The position numbers and the translations under genes are program-made. Below, in pieces: positions 6,202-50,549 of a DNA stretch of 64,000 nucleotides (position 1 is its first letter; each line of letters begins with the position of its first letter). Below the pieces are notes generated by a model. That model made no database searches and was not told the DNA's origin. It saw only the letters and a list, made by a program, of their open reading frames with translations. Source of the DNA: an uncultured Bacilli bacterium (lineage in GTDB: Bacteria > Bacillota_I > Bacilli_A > RF39 > UBA660); NCBI GenBank assembly GCA_944359625.1, contig CALVSW010000001.1:29192-93191 (forward strand), in the 5' to 3' direction.

Positions 6202-7347
6202 ATGAGTTACGTAATTAATAATCATAATATTTTTGCCATAGTGCTTATAACATTCTTAGCAACACTTGTTTTAACTCCGATAATGAAAAAGGTAGCTATT
6301 CATGTAAATGCCATGGATTATCCTGATTCTAAACGTAAAATACATAAAGTACCAATGCCCAGGTTAGGCGGTGTAGCAATATTTCTATCTTTTATGTTAG
6401 GATATATATTATTTGCTCCTGAAAATAGTATTATGATATCAATTTTAATGGGTAGCTTTTTACTTATTTTAGCTGGTGCAGTTGATTCAATTACACCATT
6501 AAAAGCTAGATATCAATTAATTATACATATTATTTCGGCTGCTATAGTAGTAGTTTATGGAAAATTAGTTTTAAATACTATATCGATATTTGGTTTAACT
6601 ATAAATTTTGTAGAACCATTAAATTATTTAGTAACAATACTATTTATTGTTTTATTTATAAATGTAATTAATTTAATTGATGGGTTAGATGGACTTGCTA
6701 CTGGTATTTCTTCAATATATTTTTTAACAATTGCTATTATAGCTTTTATGTTAAATCAATTAGGAGGGTTAGATGTTATTTTAGCACTAATTATGTTAGG
6801 ATCTACATTAGGTTTTTTAGTATATAATTTTCCACCAGCATCTTGTTTTTTAGGTAATTGTGGTAGTGATTTCTTAGGTTTTATAATTGGAGTAATCGGT
6901 TTATTAGGATTTAAAGGCGCAACATTAACAAGTATTGTAATTCCAATTTGTATTTTGGCTATACCTATTTTAGATACAGTTTTAGCTATTTTAAGAAGAT
7001 TAATTAGAGGAGAAGGAATTTTTACTCCGGATAAAGAACATTTTCATCATCAACTTTTAAAAATGAAATTTAGTCCTAAAACTTCTATATTAATTATTTA
7101 TTTTATTACGGCATTATTTAGTGCTGTATCTATCTTTTTTGCTTTAGGTGATAAAAAGCAAGCAATGATTATTTATGTTATTTTAATGCTTTTCTTAATA
7201 TTTATTGTTATGAAAACAGATATCTTATTTAAACATAAAAAAACAATATTAGAAGAAGAAAGAATTTTAAAAGAAGAAGTAGCTAGAGAACATATTATGA
7301 TGCAAAAACGTAAAAAAGAAAGAAGTAAAAAAAGAAAAAATAATTAA
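6202..7347 (+). CDS. Polyprenyl-phosphate N-acetylhexosamine-1-phosphate transferase (MraY/WecA/TagO family, GT4)
   Basis: Multi-pass membrane protein with NVINLIDGLDGLATG and FLGNCGSDFLGF motifs typical of the MraY/WecA family. Confidence 0.8.
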   Translation: MSYVINNHNIFAIVLITFLATLVLTPIMKKVAIHVNAMDYPDSKRKIHKVPMPRLGGVAIFLSFMLGYILFAPENSIMISILMGSFLLILAGAVDSITPLKARYQLIIHIISAAIVVVYGKLVLNTISIFGLTINFVEPLNYLVTILFIVLFINVINLIDGLDGLATGISSIYFLTIAIIAFMLNQLGGLDVILALIMLGSTLGFLVYNFPPASCFLGNCGSDFLGFIIGVIGLLGFKGATLTSIVIPICILAIPILDTVLAILRRLIRGEGIFTPDKEHFHHQLLKMKFSPKTSILIIYFITALFSAVSIFFALGDKKQAMIIYVILMLFLIFIVMKTDILFKHKKTILEEERILKEEVAREHIMMQKRKKERSKKRKNN

Positions 7348-7376
7348 TTGCAAAACATATGGGAATACATTATAAT
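7348..7376 (+). promoter_or_regulatory. SigA-type promoter of the Leu T-box leader
   Basis: TTGCAA (7348-7353), 17 nt spacer, TATAAT (7371-7376). Confidence 0.7.
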
Positions 7377-7382
7377 AAATTT

Positions 7383-7580
7383 TGTAAATGTTGATTGAAG
7401 AAGTAGTAATATTATTAATATTTTGTAGAGAGTTAGTGGTTGGTGAAAACTAATAATATTATAATATGAACTTATCATCAGGAGTTTAAATGGGTGATTC
7501 CTATATAGATTAATGAGAAAAAATAAAGGTGGTACCACGTTTTAAACTTCACGTCCTTTTGCGATATGGAGTTTTTTTGT
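7383..7580 (+). promoter_or_regulatory. T-box riboswitch leader, leucine specifier (CUU)
   Basis: AG-bulge AGAGAG (7426-7431) and distal-loop GGTTGGTGAAAAC. Specifier context GAA-CUU-A (CUU at 7471-7473). T-box sequence AAAGGTGGTACCACG (7525-7539). Terminator aaacttca/tggagttt plus T7 (7544-7578). Confidence 0.85.
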
Positions 7581-7598
7581 TAAAAAGGAGAAAATAAT

Positions 7599-8000
7599 AT
7601 GAAAGATGAATTAATTTTTAATTTAATATTTTTTATTATATTATTTATTTTTGTCTATATAATATGTTATTATTTCTTAGGTAGAATTAAACCTAAGAAG
7701 AAAGATGGTAAGAAAGGTAAGCCAACATTCAAACTGATGAGTGAGGGAAGATTTTTAATTCTAAGATATAATTTAGATGAAAAAAAGATTAATTTAAAGT
7801 CATTTAATCGTGGTATTTGTTTATGTAATGCTTTTATTATATCATTTACATCAACAGTTATATCTGTAATACCACTGAATATGTTTTTTCAACTTGCTAT
7901 AGGTTTTGTGCTTTTATTTGCACTTATATATGCAATATTTGAAATTTATGGAAGACATTTAAATAAGAAATGGGGAAAGTATAATGATAGAGAATTATAA
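7599..8000 (+). CDS. Small integral membrane protein (about 3 TM), first gene behind the Leu T-box
   Basis: Strong RBS aaaggag 8 nt upstream of the ATG. Hydrophobic segments IFNLIFFIILFIFVYIICYYFL and FFQLAIGFVLLFALIYAIF. The 3' end overlaps the leuS start by 17 nt. Confidence 0.6.
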   Translation: MKDELIFNLIFFIILFIFVYIICYYFLGRIKPKKKDGKKGKPTFKLMSEGRFLILRYNLDEKKINLKSFNRGICLCNAFIISFTSTVISVIPLNMFFQLAIGFVLLFALIYAIFEIYGRHLNKKWGKYNDREL

Positions 8001-10806
8001 TTTTAAAGCAATTGAAGAAAAATGGCAAAAATATTGGAATGAACATGAAACATTTAAAGCTATAAATGGTAGTAATAAAAAGCCTTATTATGTATTAGTT
8101 GAATTTCCATATCCATCTGGAGCTGGATTACACGTTGGTCATGTAAGAAGTTATACGGCATTAGATTCTTTAGCAAGATTAAAACGTATGCAAGGTTATA
8201 ACGTGTTATATCCAATGGGTTGGGATGCTTTTGGAGCTCCTGCTGAACAATATGCGATTAAAAATCATATTCATCCTAAGGAAGCTGTTAGAGAAAATAT
8301 CCATAATTTTAAAAGACAGATGCAATCACTTGGGTTTTCATTTGATTGGTCAAGAGAATTTTCAACAACTGATCCTGAATATTATAAATGGACTCAATGG
8401 CAATTTTTACAATTTTATAAACATAATATGGCTTATAAGGCAACAGTACCTGTAAACTGGTGTCCAAATTGTAAAACAGTTTTATCGAATGAAGATGCTG
8501 CTGGTGGGGTTTGTGAAAGATGTAAAACTAAGGTTGTTCAAAAGGAAAAATCTCAATGGATGTTACGTATGAGTGATTATGCTGAACAATTATTAGATGG
8601 TTTAAAAGATACGCATTTTGCTGATAAGGTAAAATTAGGCCAAATAAACTGGATAGGAAAATCAGTAGGAGCTGAAGTTGTTTTTAAAGTAGCAGATAGT
8701 AACTATTCTTTTACAGTATTTACAACAAGATGTGACACTTTATATGGTGCTACTTATTGTGTATTAGCACCTGAACATGAACTTGTAATGAAAATAACTA
8801 CTAAAGAACATGAAGCTGAAGTATTAAAATATAAAGAAGAATGTGCTTTAAAAAATGAGTTAGAAAGAACTGATTTAAATAAAGATAAAACCGGAGTATT
8901 CACTGGTTCTTATGCTATTAATCCTGTTAATAACAAAAAGATTCCTATTTATATAAGTGATTATGTTTTATTAAGTTATGGAACTGGCGCTATTATGGCT
9001 GTACCTGCACATGATGAAAGAGATTATGAATTTGCTAAAAAATTTAATATTCCAATTATTCAAGTTTTAGAGGAAGAAACTGGTACTCCTAAAGAAAACG
9101 AATTTAAGAAAAATTCTATTGTAGCTATTTTATATGATGAAAATAAAGATGAATATTTAACTATTAATTGGCATGATAAAGGTGGAAGATTATTTGTAGG
9201 TGGTTCAATAAAGGATAATGAAACAGCTTTAGATTGTGCTATTAGAGAGATAAAAGAAGAAACTGGTTATATTAATTTTGAATTAGTAAGTGAATTACCT
9301 AAAATAAATCATCATTATTATGCGTATAATAAAGATAAGTACTTTAATATTGAGTCTACGGGTTATTTATTTAAATTAAAAGATTATGCAAAAGAAGAAC
9401 AAAATTTAGATGATGATGAAGTTTTTGATGTTGAATGGGTTAATAAGAATGTTATTGAAAATGAAGTAACTGATGAGTTACATAAAAAAACTTTTATGTA
9501 TGCTTTAAAACCAGGCGCTATGGTTGGTGATGGTATTCATATTAATTCCGAATTCTTAAATGGTTTAAATAAAGAAGATGCTATTAATAAGATGATTGCC
9601 TACTTAGAAGAAAATAAATGTGGTTCTAAGAAAATAAATTATAAAATGCGTGATTGGATTTTCTCTCGTCAAAGATTCTGGGGTGAACCTATTCCTATGA
9701 TTAATTGTCCAAAATGTGGATGGGTTCCTATGAATGAAGAAGATTTACCTTTGTTATTACCAGATGTTGCTGAATATGAACCAACTGATAATGGGGAATC
9801 TCCACTTGCTAAAATTACTGATTGGGTAAATTGTAAGTGTCCTAAATGCGGTGGTGATGCTAAAAGAGAAACTGATACGATGCCAAACTGGGCAGGTTCT
9901 TCTTGGTATTTCTTAAGGTTTATGGATGCTCATAATGATAAAGAATTTGCTTCGATGGAAGCTATGAAATATTGGAATAAAGTTAATTGGTATAATGGGG
10001 GAATGGAACATACGGCAAGACATTTGTTGTATGCAAGATTCTGGGTTCAATTTTTATATAATATTGGTTTAGTTCCTAATAAAGAAATGATTGATGTTCG
10101 TGTATCTCATGGAATGGTTCTTGGTGATAATAACGAAAAAATGAGCAAATCTAAAGGAAATGTTATAAATCCTGATGATATTGTTAAAGAGTATGGTGCT
10201 GATGTTTTAAGAGTTTATGAAATGTTTATGGGAGATTATGAAATGGATGCTCCTTGGTCTACTTCTTCTTTAAGAGGTTGTAAACGTTTTATCGATCGTA
10301 TTATTCGTTTAGAAAATAAAGTAGTAGATGGCGATAATTATTCAAAATCTTTAGAAGTAATTATTAATAAAACAATAAAAAAAGTAACTGATGATATTCT
10401 TAATATGGGGTATAATACAGCAGTAGCAGCTTTGATGATATTATTAAATACTTATGAAGATCAAAAAGAAATTACGAAGAAAGATTATAATATAATTTTA
10501 ACTTTATTAAATCTATTTGCCCCTCATATTACAGAGGAAATAAATGAAAAACTTGGATATAAACCAATATGTGAAAGTCCATGGCCAACTTATGATGAAG
10601 ATAAAATAGAAGATAAAGAAAAAGAAATTGGCGTTCAAGTAAATGGAAAATTAAGAGCTTCGATTAAGGTTAATATCGATGATGATGAAGAAAAATTAAA
10701 GGAAAAAGCTTTAAAAGAAGATAATGTAAAAAAATATATCGATGGTAAAGAAGTAGTAAAAATTATTGCTATAAAAGGTCGTATTGTAAATATTGTTGTA
10801 AGATAG
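7984..10806 (+). CDS. leuS: Leucine--tRNA ligase with an inserted Nudix hydrolase domain
   Basis: YNFKAIEEKWQKYW, PYPSGAGLHVGHV (HIGH), AVPAHDERDYEFAKKF (CP1 editing), RDWIFSRQRFWGEPIP, KMSKSKGN (KMSKS). 940 aa, with an extra segment of about 150 aa carrying a Nudix box. Confidence 0.95.
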   Translation: MIENYNFKAIEEKWQKYWNEHETFKAINGSNKKPYYVLVEFPYPSGAGLHVGHVRSYTALDSLARLKRMQGYNVLYPMGWDAFGAPAEQYAIKNHIHPKEAVRENIHNFKRQMQSLGFSFDWSREFSTTDPEYYKWTQWQFLQFYKHNMAYKATVPVNWCPNCKTVLSNEDAAGGVCERCKTKVVQKEKSQWMLRMSDYAEQLLDGLKDTHFADKVKLGQINWIGKSVGAEVVFKVADSNYSFTVFTTRCDTLYGATYCVLAPEHELVMKITTKEHEAEVLKYKEECALKNELERTDLNKDKTGVFTGSYAINPVNNKKIPIYISDYVLLSYGTGAIMAVPAHDERDYEFAKKFNIPIIQVLEEETGTPKENEFKKNSIVAILYDENKDEYLTINWHDKGGRLFVGGSIKDNETALDCAIREIKEETGYINFELVSELPKINHHYYAYNKDKYFNIESTGYLFKLKDYAKEEQNLDDDEVFDVEWVNKNVIENEVTDELHKKTFMYALKPGAMVGDGIHINSEFLNGLNKEDAINKMIAYLEENKCGSKKINYKMRDWIFSRQRFWGEPIPMINCPKCGWVPMNEEDLPLLLPDVAEYEPTDNGESPLAKITDWVNCKCPKCGGDAKRETDTMPNWAGSSWYFLRFMDAHNDKEFASMEAMKYWNKVNWYNGGMEHTARHLLYARFWVQFLYNIGLVPNKEMIDVRVSHGMVLGDNNEKMSKSKGNVINPDDIVKEYGADVLRVYEMFMGDYEMDAPWSTSSLRGCKRFIDRIIRLENKVVDGDNYSKSLEVIINKTIKKVTDDILNMGYNTAVAALMILLNTYEDQKEITKKDYNIILTLLNLFAPHITEEINEKLGYKPICESPWPTYDEDKIEDKEKEIGVQVNGKLRASIKVNIDDDEEKLKEKALKEDNVKKYIDGKEVVKIIAIKGRIVNIVVR

Positions 10807-39740: not shown

Positions 39741-41492
39741 ATGATAAATATAAAAGAAGATAAAGAGTTAAGTGTATTAAACCATTCTTGTGCTCATTTA
39801 CTTGCACAAGCTGTAAAACATTTATATCCAGATGCTAAGTTTTGGGTTGGACCTGTAATTGAAGATGGTTTTTATTATGATATTGATTTAGGAGATAAAA
39901 AAATTAGTGATGAAGATATAAGTGCTATTGAAAAAGAAATGAAAAAAATAGCTAAAGATGGCAAGAAAATTGTTAGGCATGAATTATCTAAAAGTGAAGC
40001 ATTAGAAATGTTTAAAGATGACCCATATAAAATTGATTTAATAAATAATATGAGTGATGATGAAGTAATTTCTTGTTATACTCAAGGTGATTTTACAGAT
40101 TTATGTCGTGGACCTCATGTTGAATCTGTTAAATTGCTTAAAAATTTTAAATTAACTAAGTTTAGTGGTGCTTATTATAAGGGTGATGCTAATAACAAGA
40201 TGCTTCAAAGAATTTATGGTGTTTGTTTCTTTACTAAAGAAGATTTAGATAGTTATTTAGAAGAATTAGAAAGTGCTAAAGAAAGAGATCATCGTAAATT
40301 AGGAAAAGACTTAGAAATATTTATGAGCGATGATTTAGTTGGTAGAGGATTACCTATGTTTTTACCAAATGGTTATATTATTTGGCAAGAATTAGAAAAC
40401 TATATTAAAAATAAAGAAAAGAAGTTGGGATATCAACATGTTATGACTCCTTGTGTTGGTAATGTTGAATTATATAAAACTTCAGGTCACTGGGATCATT
40501 ATAAAGAAAATATGTTTCCTAAAATGGAAGTTGATGGTGAAGAGTTTGTATTACGTCCAATGAACTGCCCTCATCATATGATGATATTTAAAAATAAATT
40601 ACATTCTTATAAAGATTTACCAGTTAGAATAGCCGAAATTGCTCATGATTTTAGATATGAAGCATCTGGTGCTTTAAAAGGAATTGAACGTGCTAGACAT
40701 TTCTGTCAAAATGATTCCCATATCTTTGTAACTCCGGAACAAATTAAAGATGAATTTAAAGGAGTGGTGGATTTAATTTTTGATGTTTATAAAGATTTTA
40801 ATATTACTAATTATCATTGTGTCTTATCCCTAAGAGATCCAGAAGATAAAACAAAGTATTATCCAGATGATGAAATGTGGAATAAAGCTGAAAATAATTT
40901 ACGTCAAGTATTAAAAGATATAGGTATATCTTATACCGAAGAAATTGGTGAAGCAGCATTCTATGGGCCTAAATTAGATGTTAATGTAAAACCTGCTGTT
41001 GGTAACGAATATACTTTATCGACATGTCAATTAGATTTTTGCCTACCTGCCAAATTTGATTTAAAATATATTGATAAAGATGGTACTGCTAAAACACCAG
41101 TAGTTTTACATCGTGCTATCCTTGGTTCATTAGATCGTTTTATGGCTTATTTATTAGAAGAAACTAAAGGGGTTTTACCATTATGGTTAAGTCCTATTCA
41201 AGTTAATATTATACCAGTTAATAATGAATATCATTTAGATTATGCTAATAAAGTTAATAATTTATTAATAGATAATAATATAAGAACTAACTTGGATGAC
41301 AGAGATGAAAAAGTTGGGTATAAATTAAGAGAAGGCGTTATGAAAAAGATTTTATACACTTTAGTTTTAGGAGATAATGAAAAAGCTAATAATACTATTA
41401 CATATCGTAAATATGGAACTGAAGATAAAGTAACTATTTCTTTAGATGAATTTGTTAAAATGATTAAAGATGAAATACAAAGTAAAAAATAA
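39741..41492 (+). CDS. thrS: Threonine--tRNA ligase (short form, no N-terminal TGS domain)
   Basis: LNHSCAHLLAQAVK (editing/SAD domain), RDHRKLGKDLEIF, RPMNCPHH, FRYEASGAL.GIERAR, class II motif 3 and anticodon-binding C-terminus. 583 aa. Confidence 0.95.
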   Translation: MINIKEDKELSVLNHSCAHLLAQAVKHLYPDAKFWVGPVIEDGFYYDIDLGDKKISDEDISAIEKEMKKIAKDGKKIVRHELSKSEALEMFKDDPYKIDLINNMSDDEVISCYTQGDFTDLCRGPHVESVKLLKNFKLTKFSGAYYKGDANNKMLQRIYGVCFFTKEDLDSYLEELESAKERDHRKLGKDLEIFMSDDLVGRGLPMFLPNGYIIWQELENYIKNKEKKLGYQHVMTPCVGNVELYKTSGHWDHYKENMFPKMEVDGEEFVLRPMNCPHHMMIFKNKLHSYKDLPVRIAEIAHDFRYEASGALKGIERARHFCQNDSHIFVTPEQIKDEFKGVVDLIFDVYKDFNITNYHCVLSLRDPEDKTKYYPDDEMWNKAENNLRQVLKDIGISYTEEIGEAAFYGPKLDVNVKPAVGNEYTLSTCQLDFCLPAKFDLKYIDKDGTAKTPVVLHRAILGSLDRFMAYLLEETKGVLPLWLSPIQVNIIPVNNEYHLDYANKVNNLLIDNNIRTNLDDRDEKVGYKLREGVMKKILYTLVLGDNEKANNTITYRKYGTEDKVTISLDEFVKMIKDEIQSKK

Positions 41493-41566
41493 ATTATAGG
41501 TATTATTTATCTATAATAATATTATTTATTAATTATAGTATAATAGTTATAGAAAGTAGGAATTAT

Positions 41567-42094
41567 ATGTTAGAAGTCTTTGGTGCTATATTTATTATTG
41601 TAATAGGATGTCTTAGTCATTTTTTATATGATTGGACTCATCATAATAAATTAGTAGGTTATTTTACAGCTGTTAATGAATCAACTTGGGAACATTTAAA
41701 ATTAGTTATTGCCCCAACATTTTTATGGTTAATTGTTGAATATCATTTTTATTATGATAATCCTAACTTATTTTTTGCTCGTTTTATAAGTTTAATAGTT
41801 ATGTTATTAGTTATTCCTTTTATATTTTATTCATATACTCATGTTACTAAAAAACCAATATTATTTATAGATATTAGTAGTTTTATTGTTTCTATTATTA
41901 TTGGACAATTAGTATTTAGTAAATTAATAACTATACCAAATAGTAACTTAGTTTTAACTCATATTGGTATTATAGGTTTAATTATTATCTTTTTAATTTA
42001 TATAACTCGTACTTATGTTCCAACAATGAACTTTTTACATAAAGATCCAATTACTAATAAATATGGGATAGAAGGGCATTTCGATGATAAATAA
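41567..42094 (+). CDS. Hypothetical multi-pass membrane protein
   Basis: 175 aa, about 5 hydrophobic helices. Followed by terminator cttatct/agataag plus T7. Confidence 0.55.
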   Translation: MLEVFGAIFIIVIGCLSHFLYDWTHHNKLVGYFTAVNESTWEHLKLVIAPTFLWLIVEYHFYYDNPNLFFARFISLIVMLLVIPFIFYSYTHVTKKPILFIDISSFIVSIIIGQLVFSKLITIPNSNLVLTHIGIIGLIIIFLIYITRTYVPTMNFLHKDPITNKYGIEGHFDDK

Positions 42095-42157
42095 AATCTT
42101 ATCTAATAAAAAAGATAAGTTTTTTTATGGTATAATCTACTTGAAGTAGGTGCATTT

Positions 42158-43189
42158 ATGAAATCATATTATGATAAATTAGATAATAAAATTAAAGAAT
42201 ATTTTAATATTTTAGAACCAGATTTTCCAAATTGGTTAGATGATTATATTAATACTAAAGAAATGTTAAAACAAAAGTATACAAGTCTTTCATGTGGGAC
42301 AATATATTCCGATTTATTTAAGAGTACTTTCTTTTATTCTAATCTGGATCACTCAATTGCTGTGGCATTAATTGTTTGGCATTTTACTCATGATAAAAAA
42401 CAAACATTAGCAGGCTTATTTCACGATATATCAACACCATGTTTTAAACATTGTATCGACTTTTTAAATGGCGATTATATGAATCAAGAGTCCATAGAAG
42501 ATTTGACTACAGATGTAATTAAAAATTCTAAAGAAATAATGACTTTATTAAAAAGAGATAAAATTGATTTAACAGAGGTTGATAATTATCATATTTATCC
42601 AATTGCTGATAACGATAGTCCAAAACTAGCAGCAGATAGATTAGAATGTTTTTTCTCTAATGGGTTAATAACCTATGAAATAATAGATATTGAGAAAGTT
42701 AAAGAAATTTATAATGATTTAGAAATACAAAAGAATGAGGATAATCAAATTGAATTAGGATTTAAAACTAAAAAAATAGCTAGAGAATTAGTAAAATATA
42801 ATAATATGTTATCTACAATCTATCATGAAGATAAGACAAGATATTCTATGCAATTTATTGCTGATATTATAAAATTATTAAATAAAGATAATTTAATTAA
42901 AATAAGTGATTTATATAATTTAAAAGAAAGTGAAGTTATTGAAATAATATTAAAGTCTAAGTATAAAGATGTATTTAATAAATGGTTAAAAGCGAAAAAA
43001 GTTAATGTATCTAAAACAGAACCAAAAGGAGTATATTATGTTCATCATCCTGCTAAAATAAGATATATTAATCCCTTATATAATGGTGTAAGAATATCTA
43101 ATGCTTGTAAAATAGCTAAGAAAATGATAGATAAGAATTTATCTTATGATATGACTAATTATGTATATTTAGATTTTAGTTTAGAATAA
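42158..43189 (+). CDS. HD-domain phosphohydrolase family protein
   Basis: LDHSIAVALIVWHF...LAGLFHDISTPCFKHCID shows the H...HD...D pattern. 343 aa. Confidence 0.65.
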   Translation: MKSYYDKLDNKIKEYFNILEPDFPNWLDDYINTKEMLKQKYTSLSCGTIYSDLFKSTFFYSNLDHSIAVALIVWHFTHDKKQTLAGLFHDISTPCFKHCIDFLNGDYMNQESIEDLTTDVIKNSKEIMTLLKRDKIDLTEVDNYHIYPIADNDSPKLAADRLECFFSNGLITYEIIDIEKVKEIYNDLEIQKNEDNQIELGFKTKKIARELVKYNNMLSTIYHEDKTRYSMQFIADIIKLLNKDNLIKISDLYNLKESEVIEIILKSKYKDVFNKWLKAKKVNVSKTEPKGVYYVHHPAKIRYINPLYNGVRISNACKIAKKMIDKNLSYDMTNYVYLDFSLE

Positions 43190-43247
43190 TAATGTAAAGT
43201 TTATAACTTTATGTTAAAATTAAATTATCATATGGAGGTGTGAGAGT

Positions 43248-43541
43248 TTGAAGAAATTTTTAATGATTATTGGAGGTATATTTTTGTTTTTAGTGGTAGC
43301 TTTTATAGCTTTATTCTTAATAATATCTGCTACATCTAAAAAACTTGTTTGTAAATCAAATGAGGGTAATATTACAATCATGTATAATGATAAAACTATA
43401 AGTGGTTATACTGCTAATGGATTATCTTATGACTTAGATGGTCAAAAAAAGTATGCTGAAGAAATAGGAATTGATGCTTATATTGAAGAATTTTCAACAA
43501 TGTTTAGCAATAAAACAGCTGGTAGTTGTTCTAAAGAATAA
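43248..43541 (+). CDS. Small single-pass membrane-anchored protein
   Basis: TTG start behind RBS ggaggtg. N-terminal TM FLMIIGGIFLFLVVAFIALFLII. 97 aa. Own terminator ttaac-aatttc-gttaa plus T-run downstream. Confidence 0.5.
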   Translation: MKKFLMIIGGIFLFLVVAFIALFLIISATSKKLVCKSNEGNITIMYNDKTISGYTANGLSYDLDGQKKYAEEIGIDAYIEEFSTMFSNKTAGSCSKE

Positions 43542-43591
43542 TTATATATAAAATTATTAACAATTTCGTTAATAGTTTTTTTATAAATTTA

Positions 43592-43620
43592 TAGACAACA
43601 ATAAAAATATTTATTACAAT
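43592..43620 (+). promoter_or_regulatory. SigA-type promoter driving the retron ncRNA and RT
   Basis: TAGACA (43592-43597), 17 nt spacer, TACAAT (43615-43620). The predicted transcription start falls at the a1 repeat. Confidence 0.6.
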
Positions 43621-43625
43621 GAAAT

Positions 43626-43792
43626 TGCAGTAGCGATTGGATTGTTATCCTACTTTAACGATTCGTTAAGGGACTATTTAAGTTATAGATATTAAATAGT
43701 AATACTTCAAAGGACTATTCTACACGTTGTGTAGTCGCTTCGTTTTACTCCGCTACAGTCCATTTACGTATTACGATATCATTAGTACTGCA
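43626..43792 (+). ncRNA. Retron non-coding RNA (msr-msd)
   Basis: Terminal inverted repeats TGCAGTA (43626-43632) and TACTGCA (43786-43792), a1/a2-like. G residues in a UAGCG context directly 3' of a1. Internal hairpins: ggat/atcc (43639-43650), ttaacg/cgttaa (43655-43669), ctatttaa/ttaaatag (43674-43699), ctacac/gtgtag (43720-43734), ggact/agtcc (43712-43761). Lies immediately upstream of the RT RBS. Confidence 0.7.
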
Positions 43793-43808
43793 TTTAGGAG
43801 GTAGTAAA

Positions 43809-44768
43809 ATGTGGAAATATATTGGTGTTAAAGAATGCAATGAATTTTTACTATCTCTTAATTTATTAAATTGTAAAGATGAAAAAAAATATATTAAAAC
43901 AATATATTCTTTAAGTAATAATATTGAAAATAATTATAAAATATATAATATTAAAAAGAAAAATGGTAAATTAAGAAAAATATATGAACCAAATGGCATT
44001 TTAAAACACATTCAAAGAAAAATATTAGAAAATATTTTAAATAATAAAAGTATATCTATATATGCTAAAGCATATCATAAAGGGTTATCTTTAAAAGATA
44101 ATGCTTTGCCACATATTAATAAAGATATGATTTTAAAACTAGATATAAAAGATTTTTTTGAAAGTATTTCTTTTTTAAATATTTATGAAAGTTGTTTTTC
44201 AATTGAGTATTTTCCTAAATCTGTAGGAATGATTTTAACTTATTTATGCACATATGATGATCATTTAACCCAAGGTTCACCGACATCTGCTTATATCTCT
44301 AATTTAGTTATGAAAGAATTTGATGAATATATAGGTAATTGGTGTACTACTAATAATATTACTTATACAAGATATTCTGATGATATGACTTTTTCAGGTA
44401 ACTTTAATTCTAGTGAAGTAATTAATTTAGTTCGTAATAATCTAGGTAAGTTAGGTTTAGAACTTAATAAAGATAAAATACATGTAATTAAAAAATCCTT
44501 TAGACAAAGTGTTACTGGGATAGTAGTTAATGAAAAAGTTCAAGTAAATATAACCTATAGAAGAGATATAAGACAGGAAATGTATTATATAAATAAATAC
44601 GGCTTAAAAAATCATTTGAAAGTAAAGAATATAAAAATGAATCATAAGAATTATTTAAATAAGTTATATGGAAAAATATTATATGTATTACAAGTAAATA
44701 ATAATGATAAAGAATTTATAGAATATAAAGAAATAATTAAAAAGTTAAAAGAAACCTCTAATTTATAA
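43809..44768 (+). CDS. Retron-type reverse transcriptase
   Basis: LRKIYEPNGILKHIQRKI, LDIKDFFESI, QGSPTSAYISNLVM, YTRYSDDMTFSG (YxDD) and the retron-diagnostic SVTGIVVNEK segment. 319 aa, no extra fused domain. Confidence 0.9.
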   Translation: MWKYIGVKECNEFLLSLNLLNCKDEKKYIKTIYSLSNNIENNYKIYNIKKKNGKLRKIYEPNGILKHIQRKILENILNNKSISIYAKAYHKGLSLKDNALPHINKDMILKLDIKDFFESISFLNIYESCFSIEYFPKSVGMILTYLCTYDDHLTQGSPTSAYISNLVMKEFDEYIGNWCTTNNITYTRYSDDMTFSGNFNSSEVINLVRNNLGKLGLELNKDKIHVIKKSFRQSVTGIVVNEKVQVNITYRRDIRQEMYYINKYGLKNHLKVKNIKMNHKNYLNKLYGKILYVLQVNNNDKEFIEYKEIIKKLKETSNL

Positions 44769-44879
44769 CAAAGGTTCCTTTTTTATTACATTTACATTGT
44801 ACCATATTTTAGTTACAATTTAAAGTCTTGTAATTAAACTGATTATGAGTAAAATGCGCTTATGAGGTGGTTTATATAT

Positions 44880-46612
44880 ATGAAAGAATTTTTTAAAAAT
44901 ATTAAATTCGTTTGGAAATATGCTAAAAGTGAGAAAAGAAGGATAATTATTTATTTTTTATTAAGTATAGTTGGTGTTATATCAAGTATAATTTATCCGT
45001 TTATTTCAGCAAGAATTATTGTTAATTTAACTAGTAATCAAATAAATCAATTTATATTTATGGGCTTTATTTTATTTACAGCATATATGATAAACGATAC
45101 ATTATCTTATTTTAAAAGTAAATTATATGAAAAAATATTTAGACAGATATATATTAATATTCAAACTAATCTAGGGCTGAAATATTAAAATTAAGTAATA
45201 AAACTTTAGAAGAAAATGGTTCAGGAGTATTTATTCAAAGACTAGTAGGTAATACTAAAAGAATTTCAACAATATTTACAGATTTAAATAGATATGTTGA
45301 TGGAATTATATCCAATATCGGTATAATGGTAACTTATTTTATTTTAAGTAAAGTAATGTTTTTCTTTATTTTAATTGCTTTTACAATAAGATTTACAATA
45401 GAAATATTAAGAATCAATACATATAATAAAAATGATAAAGAATATCGTAAAAATAATGATGCTTTAACAGGATTTACTAGTGAAATTGTTCGTGGGGCAG
45501 AAGATATTAAAATGTTTAATGGTGAGACTAGCTTTTTAACTGAATTAAAAAGAAGATTTGAAAATTTAAATAATGAAAAGTATGGAATGGAAAATACTAA
45601 TTTATCCTTTTTGCTATGTAGATGGTATTGGAACCAAATTTCATATTTTTTAATGATTGTGATTGTTGGTTTATTAGTAAAGAATGGTAGCATAGAAATA
45701 GCTACGGCAGTTGTTTTATTTAATTTTGGTAATAGATACAACAGTCTAGTAGGTTATATTACTGGATTTCATGAATTAGTAAAAGAATTTAATTTATCGG
45801 CTACAAGAATATTTGATATTTTTGAGGATAAAAATTATGAAAAAGAAGTATTTGGTAATACACATTTAGATAAGATTAACGGTGATTTTGAGTTTAAAAA
45901 TGTGTCTTTTAAGTATGATGCTAGTAATGTCTTAAATAATTTAAATTTTAAAGTAAATGCTAATGAAACAGTTGCTTTTGTTGGTAAAAGTGGTGCTGGA
46001 AAAACAACAATTTTTAATCTTTTATGTAAGATGTATGATAATTATGAAGGTCTTATTACAATAGATGGTATTAATATAAAAGAATTAGATAAAGATTCTA
46101 TTAGAGGTAATATTACTATTGTTAGTCAAAATCCTTATATATTTAATATGAGTATAAAAGATAATTTAAAACTAGTTAAAAATAACCTTACTGATAAAGA
46201 AATGAAGGAAGCTTGTAAAATGGCTTGTTTAGATGATTTTATTGAGTCTTTACCTAATAAATACGATACGATAGTCGGAGAAGGTGGAATTAATTTATCT
46301 GGTGGGCAAAAACAACGTTTAGCAATAGCACGTGCCTTTGTTCAAAAAACCGAAATAATTCTTTTTGATGAAGCTACTAGTGCTTTAGATAATGAAACCC
46401 AAGCTAAAATTCAGCAAGCAATATATAATTTGCAAAAAGAATATACAATATTAATTATTGCCCATCGCTTATCTACTATTAAAAGTGCTGATAGAATTTT
46501 AGTTTTAGATAATGGAAATATTGTAGGTGAGGGAACACATACTAAATTACTAAAAACTTGCAAATTATATAAAGAACTATACGAAAATGAAATAATTAAT
46601 ATTGATAATTAA
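44880..46612 (+). pseudogene. ABC exporter (fused TMD-NBD, MsbA/bacteriocin-exporter type) interrupted by a frameshift near 45170-45185
   Basis: The N-terminal TMD part (44880-45188) stops at TAA 45186. The frame beginning about 45170 continues (A)EILKLSNKTLEENGSGVFIQRL... through Walker A GKSGAGKTT, LSGGQKQR and ILFDEATSALD. One missing nt near GGG 45174-45176 would restore a single ORF. Confidence 0.75.
45384..46600 (+). repeat. Direct repeat copy A (ABC exporter 3' two-thirds)
   Basis: Near-identical to 49312-50528 (offset 3928 nt). Long runs matched wherever compared. Confidence 0.85.
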
Positions 46613-46706
46613 CCTATAAAATACTTTACATTCTATATCGTTGATTTTAGTTGTAACTCAATATAAGTGTTATAATATAAATTGTAAATATTATAGGTGA
46701 TGTAGT

Positions 46707-48074
46707 ATGAAGTATAAAAAAAAGAAAATAAAATTAACTAAATTTGGAAAAATATTTTTTAGCCTTATTGGAATATTTATAATTAGTATATTTATGTTAA
46801 GTATAAACAGTTTTAAACATCGCTTTTATAAAGTAGAAGAAAGTGATAAATATTTAATTGAAATTAATTATCCACAAGTAAAAAATAAAAGTATTATTGC
46901 GTATTCAAAAGAATATATAAAAAATATGGAAAATGATTTTAAAAATAATATAGAAGGAATTACTGATTTGAATTCGGCTAAATATGAATTTAAAACAGAT
47001 TATGAGATAACCGAAAATGAAGATATGCTAGGAGTACATTTAATAATTTATGAATATACTGGTGGAGCACATTATATAAGACATGATAAATCTTATTATT
47101 ATGAAAAGGATGAAGAAAAAGTTGTATCAATAACTGATTTTTTAGAAGACGAAAAAAGTTTAGATAAATTAGCCAATATTTCTTACTATTATGTAATGAA
47201 GTATAGTGATGAAAATGACTTAAATTTTGATGAAAAGATGGTTAAATCAGGATTAGAATGTGACCCTAAAAACTTTGAACATTTTAACTTTATTGATGCT
47301 GGTTTAGAAATTATTTTTCCACCATTACAAGTAGCTTGTCATGCAGCTGGTGAAATAAAGATTTTAATTCCTTATAATGAGTTAGAAGGAATTATTAAAT
47401 CTAAGTATTTAAACTATAATAAAAGTGAAGATGAACATGTAAATAATACTCGCAATTTAAAAGAATTTAGTAATAAAAAGTTAATTGCTTTTACTTTTGA
47501 TGATGGTCCTAGTTATATTGCAACCAATAAACTTCTTGATAATTTAGATAGATATAATGCTCGTGTTACATTTTTTGTATTAGGCAGTCGTGTTAATGAT
47601 TATAATGTCACTTTAAAAAGAGCTTATGATATGGGAAATTTAATTGGTAGTCATACATATAGTCATGTTGATCTTACTACGTTAAATAATTTTAATGTTA
47701 TGGAAGAAATTAAAAAAACTAATGATGCTATTAAAGAAGTAACCAATAGTGATACTCTATATTTAAGACCACCATATGGTAATACTGATTCAGAAATTCG
47801 TAATTTAGCAAATATGTATAATATATTATGGGATTTAGATACTGAAGATTGGAAATATAAAGATCCAGAAAGAATCGCCAATTATATTGTAGAAAATGCT
47901 CATGATGGTGCAATAGTATTACTTCATGATTTATATGAAACCTCTGTTGACGGAGCATTACTTGCTATGGAAAGATTAGAAAAAGAAGGTTATGCATTTG
48001 TAACAATTGAAGAAATGGCAATTATAAAAAATATTGATTTAGAAAAAGATAAAAATTATTATCAAATACAATGA
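46707..48074 (+). CDS. Polysaccharide deacetylase (NodB/CE4) with N-terminal membrane anchor and DUF3298/DUF4163-like domain
   Basis: TM FFSLIGIFIISIFMLSI. YTGGAHYIRH (DUF3298-like). NodB motifs FTFDDGPS, HTYSH, LRPPYG, VLLHD. Confidence 0.85.
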   Translation: MKYKKKKIKLTKFGKIFFSLIGIFIISIFMLSINSFKHRFYKVEESDKYLIEINYPQVKNKSIIAYSKEYIKNMENDFKNNIEGITDLNSAKYEFKTDYEITENEDMLGVHLIIYEYTGGAHYIRHDKSYYYEKDEEKVVSITDFLEDEKSLDKLANISYYYVMKYSDENDLNFDEKMVKSGLECDPKNFEHFNFIDAGLEIIFPPLQVACHAAGEIKILIPYNELEGIIKSKYLNYNKSEDEHVNNTRNLKEFSNKKLIAFTFDDGPSYIATNKLLDNLDRYNARVTFFVLGSRVNDYNVTLKRAYDMGNLIGSHTYSHVDLTTLNNFNVMEEIKKTNDAIKEVTNSDTLYLRPPYGNTDSEIRNLANMYNILWDLDTEDWKYKDPERIANYIVENAHDGAIVLLHDLYETSVDGALLAMERLEKEGYAFVTIEEMAIIKNIDLEKDKNYYQIQ

Positions 48075-49289: not shown

Positions 49290-50549
49290 ATGTTATATGC
49301 TAATAAACTTCCAATAAGATTTGTAATAGAAATATTAAGAATTAATACTTATAATAAAAATGATAAAGAATATCGTAAAAATAATGATGCTTTAACTGGA
49401 TTTACGGGCGAGATTGTTCGTGGGGCAGAAGATATTAAAATGCTTAATGGTGAGACTAGCTTTTTAACTGAATTAAAAAGAAGATTTGAAAATTTAAATA
49501 ATGAAAAGTATGAAATGGAAAATACTAATTTATCCTTTTTGCTATGTAGATGGTATTGGAACCAAATTTCATATTTTTTAATGATTGTGATTGTTGGTTT
49601 ATTAGTAAAGAATGGTAGCATAGAAATAGCTACGGCAGTTGTTTTATTTAATTTTGGTAATAGATACAACAGTCTAGTAGGTTATATTACTGGATTTCAT
49701 GAATTAGTAAAAGAATTTAATTTATCGGCTACAAGAATATTTGATATTTTTGAGGATAAAAATTATGAAAAAGAAGTATTTGGTAATACACATTTAGATA
49801 AGATTAACGGTGATTTTGAGTTTAAAAATGTGTCTTTTAAGTATGATGCTAGTAATGTCTTAAATAATTTAAATTTTAAAGTAAATGCTAATGAAACAGT
49901 TGCTTTTGTTGGTAAAAGTGGTGCTGGAAAAACAACAATTTTTAATCTTTTATGTAAGATGTATGATAATTATGAAGGTCTTATTACAATAGATGGTATT
50001 AATATAAAAGAATTAGATAAAGATTCTATTAGAGGTAATATTACTATTGTTAGTCAAAATCCTTATATATTTAATATGAGTATAAAAGATAATTTAAAAC
50101 TAGTTAAAAATAACCTTACTGATAAAGAAATGAAGGAAGCTTGTAAAATGGCTTGTTTAGATGATTTTATTGAGTCTTTACCTAATAAATACGATACGAT
50201 AGTCGGAGAAGGTGGAATTAATTTATCTGGTGGGCAAAAACAACGTTTAGCAATAGCACGTGCCTTTGTTCAAAAAACCGAAATAATTCTTTTTGATGAA
50301 GCAACAAGTGCTTTAGATAATGAAACCCAATCCAAAATTCAGCAAGCAATATATAATTTACAAAAAGAATATACAATATTAATTATTGCCCATCGCTTAT
50401 CGACTATTAAAAGTGCTGATAGAATATTAGTTTTAGATGGTGGAAAAATTATTGGTGAAGGAAGTCATACAAAGTTATTAAAGACATGTAAACTATATAA
50501 AGAATTATATGAAAATGAAATAAGTAATATAGATAGTAAAGGAGAGTAA
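49290..50549 (+). pseudogene. 5'-truncated paralogous copy of the ABC exporter (last TM helices plus NBD)
   Basis: Homology to the first copy begins only at ...RFVIEILRINTYNKNDKEYRKNND. The N-terminal about 170 aa of a full half-transporter are absent. Walker A/B and signature motifs are intact. It could still be expressed from the ATG at 49290. Confidence 0.55.
49312..50528 (+). repeat. Direct repeat copy B (ABC exporter 3' two-thirds)
   Basis: Near-identical to 45384-46600. Confidence 0.85.

Follow-up and report, generated by a model that had tools for sequence, protein, structure and literature searches.

Characterized retrons are three-part antiphage systems in which multicopy single-stranded DNA (msDNA) restrains a toxic effector. 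The Ec107 branch of retron clade 2 has been described as a stand-alone cassette in which only 2 of 59 reverse transcriptases (RTs) adjoin a phosphoribosyltransferase (PRTase), and effectors acting in trans or a different function were both left open (Mestre et al. 2020, PMC7736814). Ec107 was left out of the defense tests of Millman et al., and a survey of SPIRE (Toro 2026, 10.64898/2026.05.14.725207) described a group, clade2_Ec107like (n = 192), that is 93% Bacillota and 91% host-associated and has no recurrent accessory module. The lineage is effector-free yet abundant in gut Firmicutes, and its function has been a standing question since 2020. Here, we analyzed a 64,000-nucleotide stretch of DNA (hereafter the window; contig CALVSW010000001.1, positions 29,192 to 93,191) from the chromosome of an uncultured low-GC gut Bacilli bacterium, where a sequence-only reading had proposed a complete retron made up of a promoter, an msr-msd noncoding RNA (ncRNA) and an RT. 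All of these parts were confirmed by sequence comparison, and the element is very probably an intact Ec107-like retron of a lineage that characteristically lacks a neighboring effector gene. Since effector-less Ec107-like retrons with this type of RT and ncRNA are already described (PMC7736814; 10.64898/2026.05.14.725207), the locus is an additional case of a known type, and the novelty implied by the earlier reading was overstated.

At 25% GC, the window is strongly AT-rich. The cassette is compact, at about 1.2 kb, with no second copy of the RT or the ncRNA within the window. A scan of species-representative genomes identified 209 relatives, from which the top 80 loci were retrieved for comparison (81 loci including the window). 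Nearly all of these 80 come from gut metagenome-assembled genomes (MAGs) labeled uncultured Bacilli, Tenericutes or Erysipelotrichaceae, with human, rabbit, ruminant and mouse sources, and RT identity to the window extends down to 42 to 47% in Lachnospiraceae (Hungatella, Enterocloster, Blautia). No relative above 44% identity was found in IMG/VR or among GenBank phages, in agreement with the non-prophage setting of Ec107.

Identity of the reverse transcriptase

The motifs on which the RT had been recognized as a retron enzyme (LDIKDFFESI, QGSPTSAYISN, YSDDMTFSG and SVTGIVVNEK) are all present in the 319-aa open reading frame (ORF), together with NAxxH in the form NALPH; NAxxH (region X) and VTG are the motifs by which retron RTs are specifically defined (PMC6868368). 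Classification by hidden Markov models, a check that the earlier reading had proposed, gave the PADLOC model RT_Ec107-like as the top match (E 1.5e-128, 426 bits, profile positions 2 to 306 of 307), followed by RT_III-A models at no more than 356 bits (70 bits lower) and then by other retron RT types. Pfam identified RVT_1 only, with no additional domain in the 319 aa, and the strong NCBIfam matches were exclusively to retron RT models. Thirteen of 15 PDB sequence matches are named as retron RTs and the other two are labeled RNA-directed DNA polymerase only; the closest solved structure is the Ec86 RT (7v9u, E 6e-32), with PDB coverage confined to residues 28 to 261 of the window RT. Because the strong family and structure matches are to retrons only, the window RT is a retron RT and not an intron, diversity-generating retroelement (DGR) or abortive infection (Abi) enzyme. 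An origin in a group II intron, a DGR, an Abi system or a defense-associated RT (DRT) system could appeal to the generic RVT_1 similarity and to weak NCBIfam matches to Drt2 (55 bits) and group_II_RT_mat (41 bits), but these scores fall far under the respective cut-offs of 390 and 300 bits, both retron-specific motifs are present, an Rfam search found neither intron RNA domains nor DGR template/variable repeats, and the covarying a1/a2-msr-msd RNA upstream of the gene (see below) speaks against it. A non-retron identity is refuted by the family and structure tests, and we assign it a negligible probability.

The sequence features of the enzyme are conserved across its relatives. All 74 full-length homologues have an intact YxDD, with VTG kept in 73 and NAxxH in 69; the catalytic box reads YSDD in 56 and YCDD in 18, the latter being a peculiarity noted for RT-Eco5 (PMC6868368). 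The Escherichia coli locus of Retron-Eco5 (Ec107) was recovered from complete genomes of the species by means of the K-12 slmA-pyrE junction; where the match to this junction is split, a 'reverse transcriptase family protein' gene lies between slmA and pyrE. The Ec107 RT, which like the window RT has 319 aa, is 42% identical to it over 309 aa (E 6e-89), and shares only 20 to 26% identity with other validated retron RTs. Both enzymes have a small residue at the second position of the catalytic box (YCDD in Ec107, YSDD in the window). By sequence similarity, the window RT falls with that of Ec107 and not with the RTs of other types.

A conserved and covarying msr-msd RNA

A noncoding gap of about 200 nt or more precedes the RT gene in nearly all 80 loci. 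We aligned 58 nonredundant upstream regions and scored a hand-drawn structure on this alignment against 500 shuffles and against controls in which the structure was slid along it. The structure paired 88.6% of cells, versus 78.4% in shuffled and 34 to 46% in slid controls, and its covariation score of 0.307 was reached by none of the 500 shuffles (0.127; slid controls, 0.06 to 0.09). The region from 43626 to 43792 is a conserved msr-msd ncRNA (Table 1).

The inverted repeats a1 and a2 proposed from the single sequence were confirmed and covary in homologues. The a1 core GCARTA is followed by an invariant G (G43633 in the window) and a2, TAYTGC, is preceded by another (G43785), and the two repeats change together as GCAGTA/TACTGC, GCAATA/TATTGC and GCAGTG/CACTGC, with one column forming G-C in 29 sequences and A-U in the remaining 29. 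The UAGCG context 3' of a1, previously likened to that of a branching guanosine, likewise held, its G being invariant in all 58 sequences and the context shared with Ec107. Hairpin 1 of the msr is paired in 85% of cells, with two-sided changes in 4/4 pairs; hairpin 2 is paired in 98.5%, with two-sided changes in 7/8 pairs and an apex that reads GAGTC in nearly all homologues and GATTC in the window. The msd helices (6-8) are 90 to 97% paired, with two-sided changes in 16/18 pairs. The minimum free energy fold of the window RNA agrees with these covarying helices (z -2.5; -40 kcal/mol), and the predicted msDNA folds as DNA into the expected long hairpin. The hairpins that had been placed between the repeats were thus upheld for the msr and msd helices by covariation, but not for an AT-rich third msr hairpin (43676-43681/43692-43697), which came from the single-sequence fold, is 55% paired in the alignment and was rejected.

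With an nhmmer profile of the ncRNA, a single copy was detected immediately ahead of the RT gene in the window and likewise in almost all of the loci; the window contained no orphan copies. An overlapping Rfam hit to Plastid-psbJ-3 was judged spurious (28.6 bits versus a gathering score of 61.7). The reported hallmarks of retron ncRNAs are a1/a2 repeats, facing G residues, one to three msr hairpins and a long msd stem-loop (PMC7736814), with the two opposing G residues named as a feature in the legend of its Fig. 2; a1/a2, the facing G residues, msr hairpins and the long msd stem are all found at the window locus.

The Ec107 ncRNA has the same order of parts as that of the window: a1, an unpaired G, two msr hairpins, a long branched msd stem, an opposing G and a2. 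Its a1 ends in GCAATA-G (GCAGTA in the window) with the TAGCG context common to both (AATAGCG in Ec107), and it contains the same GCGAGTCGC hairpin with a GAGTC apex in place of the GATTC of the window. A profile built from the Bacilli ncRNAs matched the E. coli ncRNA at E 1.2e-4. The two RNAs differ in the length of a1/a2, about 15 bp in Ec107 and 7 bp in the window, and in predicted stability, at -87 kcal/mol for Ec107 and -40 kcal/mol for the AT-rich window RNA.

Comparison with described retron types

As a whole, the window element resembles Retron-Eco5 in being a minimal cassette (about 1.2 to 1.3 kb) outside a prophage and with no adjacent dedicated effector. It differs in its host, a 25% GC uncultured Bacilli bacterium rather than a gammaproteobacterium, and in that its msDNA is a predicted one, that of Ec107 having been demonstrated experimentally. 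Compared to the group clade2_Ec107like, with which it shares RT_Ec107-like as its best model, a Bacillota host, a host-associated gut metagenome source and the lack of a recurrent accessory gene, we found no substantive difference, making it an additional member. Type III-A1 retrons, also of clade 2 and equipped with a PRTase-like and a winged-helix protein, are the sister RT group, consistent with the position of RT_III-A as the next model; their RTs share a node with the Ec107 branch (PMC7736814), but Pfam and PADLOC found no PRTase-like or winged helix-turn-helix gene beside the RT in the window or the 80 loci. Nor does the locus have the PtuA-type ATPase and HNH protein of type I-A (Septu-like) retrons, the only nearby ATPase being a frameshifted ABC exporter with transmembrane (TM) domains. 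Retron-Eco1 (Ec86) follows the same logic, in which a1 pairs with a2, the 2'-OH of the G 3' of a1 serves as the primer and the msd is copied, but is a type II-A3 system with a nucleoside deoxyribosyltransferase-like (NDT-like) effector.

Neighboring genes and the absence of a linked effector

The earlier reading found no recognizable effector in the operon, and this held. Neither a linked effector gene nor an effector domain fused to the RT, as expected of a tripartite defense system, was found at the window locus, and no PADLOC retron-effector model matched among the eight neighboring ORFs. Clustering the ORFs of the 80 species-level loci with those of the window, which carried out the neighborhood comparison suggested earlier, revealed no protein family conserved beside the RT; the neighbors are mostly housekeeping genes that vary between lineages, such as LexA, CTP synthase, Lon and Hsp20. 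Lack of an effector is already known to typify the lineage and is not peculiar to the window locus.

It had been suggested that the retron might work with one of its immediate neighbors as a noncanonical effector: a 97-aa single-TM protein, a putative HD protein of 343 aa or the ABC exporter. All three genes lie on the same strand within 1.7 kb, 2TM and ATPase effectors are known in other retron types (PMC7736814), and members of the 343-aa family lie no more than 8 kb from the RT in 6 of the 81 loci, at varying positions. Comparative context argues against each of them. Among the 81 loci, the TM protein was found only in the window and in L001, its nearest species-level relative, where a 5.98-kb block parts the gene from the retron. 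The 343-aa family has 6,205 homologues that are about 70% identical across Bacilli and Clostridia, and the two homologue contexts examined have mobile-element-like surroundings and no RVT_1 within 10 kb. The ABC exporter, which is of a generic kind and carries a frameshift in the window, matches only nonspecific PADLOC ATPase models and is not specifically linked to the RT. On these sequence comparisons, a partnership with any of the three is largely refuted, and we regard it as highly improbable.

The block in L001 (L001:1814-7795, against window 43545-43603) sits just upstream of the retron -35 box and encodes an IS200-like transposase, a DUF4176 protein, a Zn-ribbon protein, a C11 clostripain-like peptidase and two small ORFs. 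The 343-aa protein (window 42158-43189) had been called an HD-domain protein, an identity that was not borne out: it shows an H...HD-like motif by eye only, it has no Pfam, NCBIfam, PADLOC or PHROG match, and its sole PDB match is a hypothetical protein at E = 0.08. Family members (L095 and L098-L100) lie beside genes for Bro-N, a serine recombinase, NUDIX, MazG, UDG, thymidylate kinase and FtsK-like proteins, and these recombinase, Bro-N or nucleotide-modification contexts suggest a mobile-element cargo gene. The ABC exporter (window 44862-46612) is, as earlier noticed, split by a frameshift (at about 45176-45227) and is intact in three related loci (L001, L119 and L121; 577 to 585 aa); the frameshift could be an assembly error. 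A second, 5'-truncated copy that is about 90% identical lies at 49290-50549, and the exporter region is rearranged in some related strains.

Selection and persistence of the cassette

The earlier reading had also entertained a decaying element. Under such an explanation, the locus would be a nonfunctional remnant of a tripartite retron, for example of the type III-A PRTase kind, from which the effector was lost. The node that the Ec107 branch shares with PRTase-linked RTs, for which loss of the associated protein has been suggested (PMC7736814), the rank of RT_III-A as second-best PADLOC model and the disruption of the RT gene in about 5 of the 80 homologous loci would all fit such a history. 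The ratio of nonsynonymous to synonymous substitution rates (dN/dS) for the RT, at 0.05 to 0.26 in 14 pairs (0.11 against L001), speaks against decay, as do the catalytic and retron motifs kept in the full-length homologues, the compensatory changes that maintain pairing in the ncRNA helices and the promoter -10 box retained in 59/59 upstream regions. The cassette is kept across at least 200 species-level genomes and, within its own species, at the same site in all 10 contigs listed (22 read). The retron is under clear purifying selection and is not decaying; a nonfunctional remnant is very unlikely, and a stand-alone element, which had been offered as the alternative, is what the evidence supports. 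Ancestral loss of an effector may nonetheless be historically true, with the remaining cassette still selected.

Expression signals

The proposed promoter was upheld in part. Matches of this quality occur at chance frequency in 25% GC DNA (54 found, 49 expected), so the match by itself says little, but its -10 box is kept in all 59 nonredundant homologous upstream regions, as an exact TATAAT in 43 and with an upstream TG in 35, and mostly ends 6 to 10 nt ahead of the a1 core. Homology between the window and L001 resumes at about 43604, near the -35 box, which makes the retron promoter the left edge of the shared cassette. A terminator-like hairpin that had been reported after the RT gene did not stand up as an intrinsic terminator: on the plus strand it is weak (-5.4 kcal/mol, z -0.07) and no better than shuffled sequences, and the terminator scan called it on the minus strand only.

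Table 1. Parts of the Ec107-like retron, in window coordinates
Feature	Position	Strand	Basis or remark
Sigma-70-type promoter, TAGACA-17-TACAAT	43592-43620	+	Scan, 10/12 matches; predicted start at or near first a1 base
a1 inverted repeat, TGCAGTA	43626-43632	+	Pairs with 43786-43792; compensatory changes in 58 sequences
Candidate branching (priming) guanosine, TAGCG context	43633	+	Directly 3' of a1; invariant in 58 ncRNAs
msr hairpin 1 (GGAT/ATCC)	43639-43642 with 43647-43650	+	Covariation; minimum free energy fold
msr hairpin 2 (CTTTAACG-ATT-CGTTAAGG)	43653-43660 with 43664-43671	+	Covariation; Ec107 counterpart
msd (msDNA template), long interrupted stem	43681-43784	+	Left limit uncertain, about 43681-43697
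msd outer stem	43699-43705 with 43768-43774	+	Covariation
msd inner stem	43712-43716 with 43757-43761	+	Covariation
msd apex hairpin	43720-43725 with 43729-43734	+	Covariation
Opposing G	43785	+	Invariant
a2 inverted repeat, TACTGCA	43786-43792	+	Pairs with a1
RT ribosome-binding site, AGGAGG	43796-43801	+	7 nt before ATG; (G)GAGG kept at equivalent position in homologues
Retron RT, Ec107-like lineage, 319 aa	43809-44768	+	PADLOC, Pfam RVT_1, Ec107 identity, PDB matches, dN/dS

An upstream ATPase in part of the lineage

Several observations weigh against an intact retron of an effector-free lineage. (i) A search of positions 41000 to 47000 against Rfam in E-value mode gave no match to a retron family. 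(ii) We found no record of msDNA having been observed for the window element or for other Firmicutes retrons in the lineage. (iii) In a sub-branch with 72 to 78% identical RTs, a small AAA_15/AAA_21 ATPase is encoded directly upstream of the ncRNA and RT; a partner protein may therefore exist in some members, possibly encoded elsewhere in this genome. (iv) In some strains of the window's species, the RT stop codon is followed after 13 nt by a Ppx-GppA gene.

The arrangement of ATPase, ncRNA and RT is found in L004/L008/L011, L021/L024, L081-L088 and L127-L130, with at least four different upstream contexts. The proteins are ABC-type and 287 to 302 aa long (L004:6884-7792, L021:6923-7789, L081:4926-5792 and L127:4001-4864), with weak matches to PtuA, AriA, AbiLi and mad3, and their homologues at 74 to 77% identity have a DUF5680 or DUF2207_C gene 1 to 13 nt downstream instead. 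Recurrence of this gene order, together with the pairing of distant ATPase homologues with other genes, a pattern typical of modular defense ATPases, would favor a dedicated effector encoded in trans, such as a small PtuA-like AAA_15/AAA_21 ATPase, and effectors in trans were raised as a possibility by Mestre et al. (PMC7736814). Nevertheless, the 64-kb window and about 70 of the 80 RT loci lack the ATPase, and the RTs linked to it are not monophyletic in a neighbor-joining tree; most genomes with orphan retrons were reported to lack homologues of known retron effectors (Mestre et al., PMC7736814), and no recurrent accessory module was scored in the SPIRE survey (10.64898/2026.05.14.725207). 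We consider a dedicated effector in trans unlikely. The ATPase may be an unrecognized accessory module in part of a lineage that has been reported as accessory-free.

The Ppx-GppA gene (295 aa) lies in a 940-nt insertion (L117:5507-6445) between window positions 44754 and 44781, is also present in L122 and L123, and is preceded by an RT of 317 aa. As a partner it was rejected, being a strain-specific insertion that stands beside no other RT and is absent from the window. Its placement is curious given the reported link of Ec107 expression to ppGpp and starvation.

Other loci vary in further ways. One MAG (BRZ_GA bin85, CALVVG01) carries two divergent Ec107-like retrons (L008 and L066), whose RTs are 76% and 54% identical to the window RT and whose a1/a2 cores differ (GCAGTA and GCAATA), and a partial second msd-like segment lies within an interrupted RT gene at L012:3133-3186. 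L081-L088 represent a relative that is abundant in the human gut (RT P0039). There, the final 6 nt of the RT gene are overlapped by an oppositely oriented serine recombinase gene (about 6955-8085 and beyond), after which come Mob_Pre and more recombinase genes; mobilizable elements may integrate at the 3' end of the RT gene. An IS110 transposase takes the place of the ATPase upstream of the ncRNA in L086.

Proposed mechanism

By analogy with characterized retrons, we propose that the sigma-70-type promoter would drive transcription of a structured RNA of about 170 nt together with the RT mRNA, and that pairing of a1 with a2 would set G43633 opposite G43785. The RT, bound to the two msr hairpins, would then prime cDNA synthesis from the 2'-OH of G43633, starting at A43784 and proceeding leftwards through the msd stem, to yield a branched, RNA-linked msDNA of about 90 to 105 nt, with host RNase H clearing the template. 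The priming residue, the limits of the msDNA and the role of RNase H are all inferred from the characterized systems. The 107-nt msDNA of Ec107, if started beside the opposing G, ends 9 nt past msr hairpin 2; the equivalent end in the window predicts an msDNA of about 104 nt, and an end at the base of the msd stem one of about 88 nt.

Our best guess for the role of the RT-msDNA complex, held tentatively, is that of a phage or stress sensor acting with an unlinked host-encoded partner. That the RT and msDNA are instead a complete functional unit, a decoy or regulator with no dedicated effector in cis or trans, strikes us as somewhat doubtful. In a weaker variant, part of the lineage may have recruited the small PtuA-like ATPase as an accessory module.

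Significance

Here, we provide a direct link at the sequence level between the retrons of gut Bacilli and the experimentally validated Ec107 of E. coli. The locus adds a clean, compact example of about 1.2 kb with defined parts, and the ATPase found upstream in one sub-branch is a lead in the search for partners. There is practical interest, too, in compact stand-alone retrons as producers of single-stranded DNA in vivo. If the RT and its msDNA were indeed autonomous, the complex might, for example, be a decoy that engages nucleic-acid enzymes of phage or host, or a regulator that responds to starvation, and would represent a minimal system held by purifying selection across hundreds of species of small-genome gut Bacilli.

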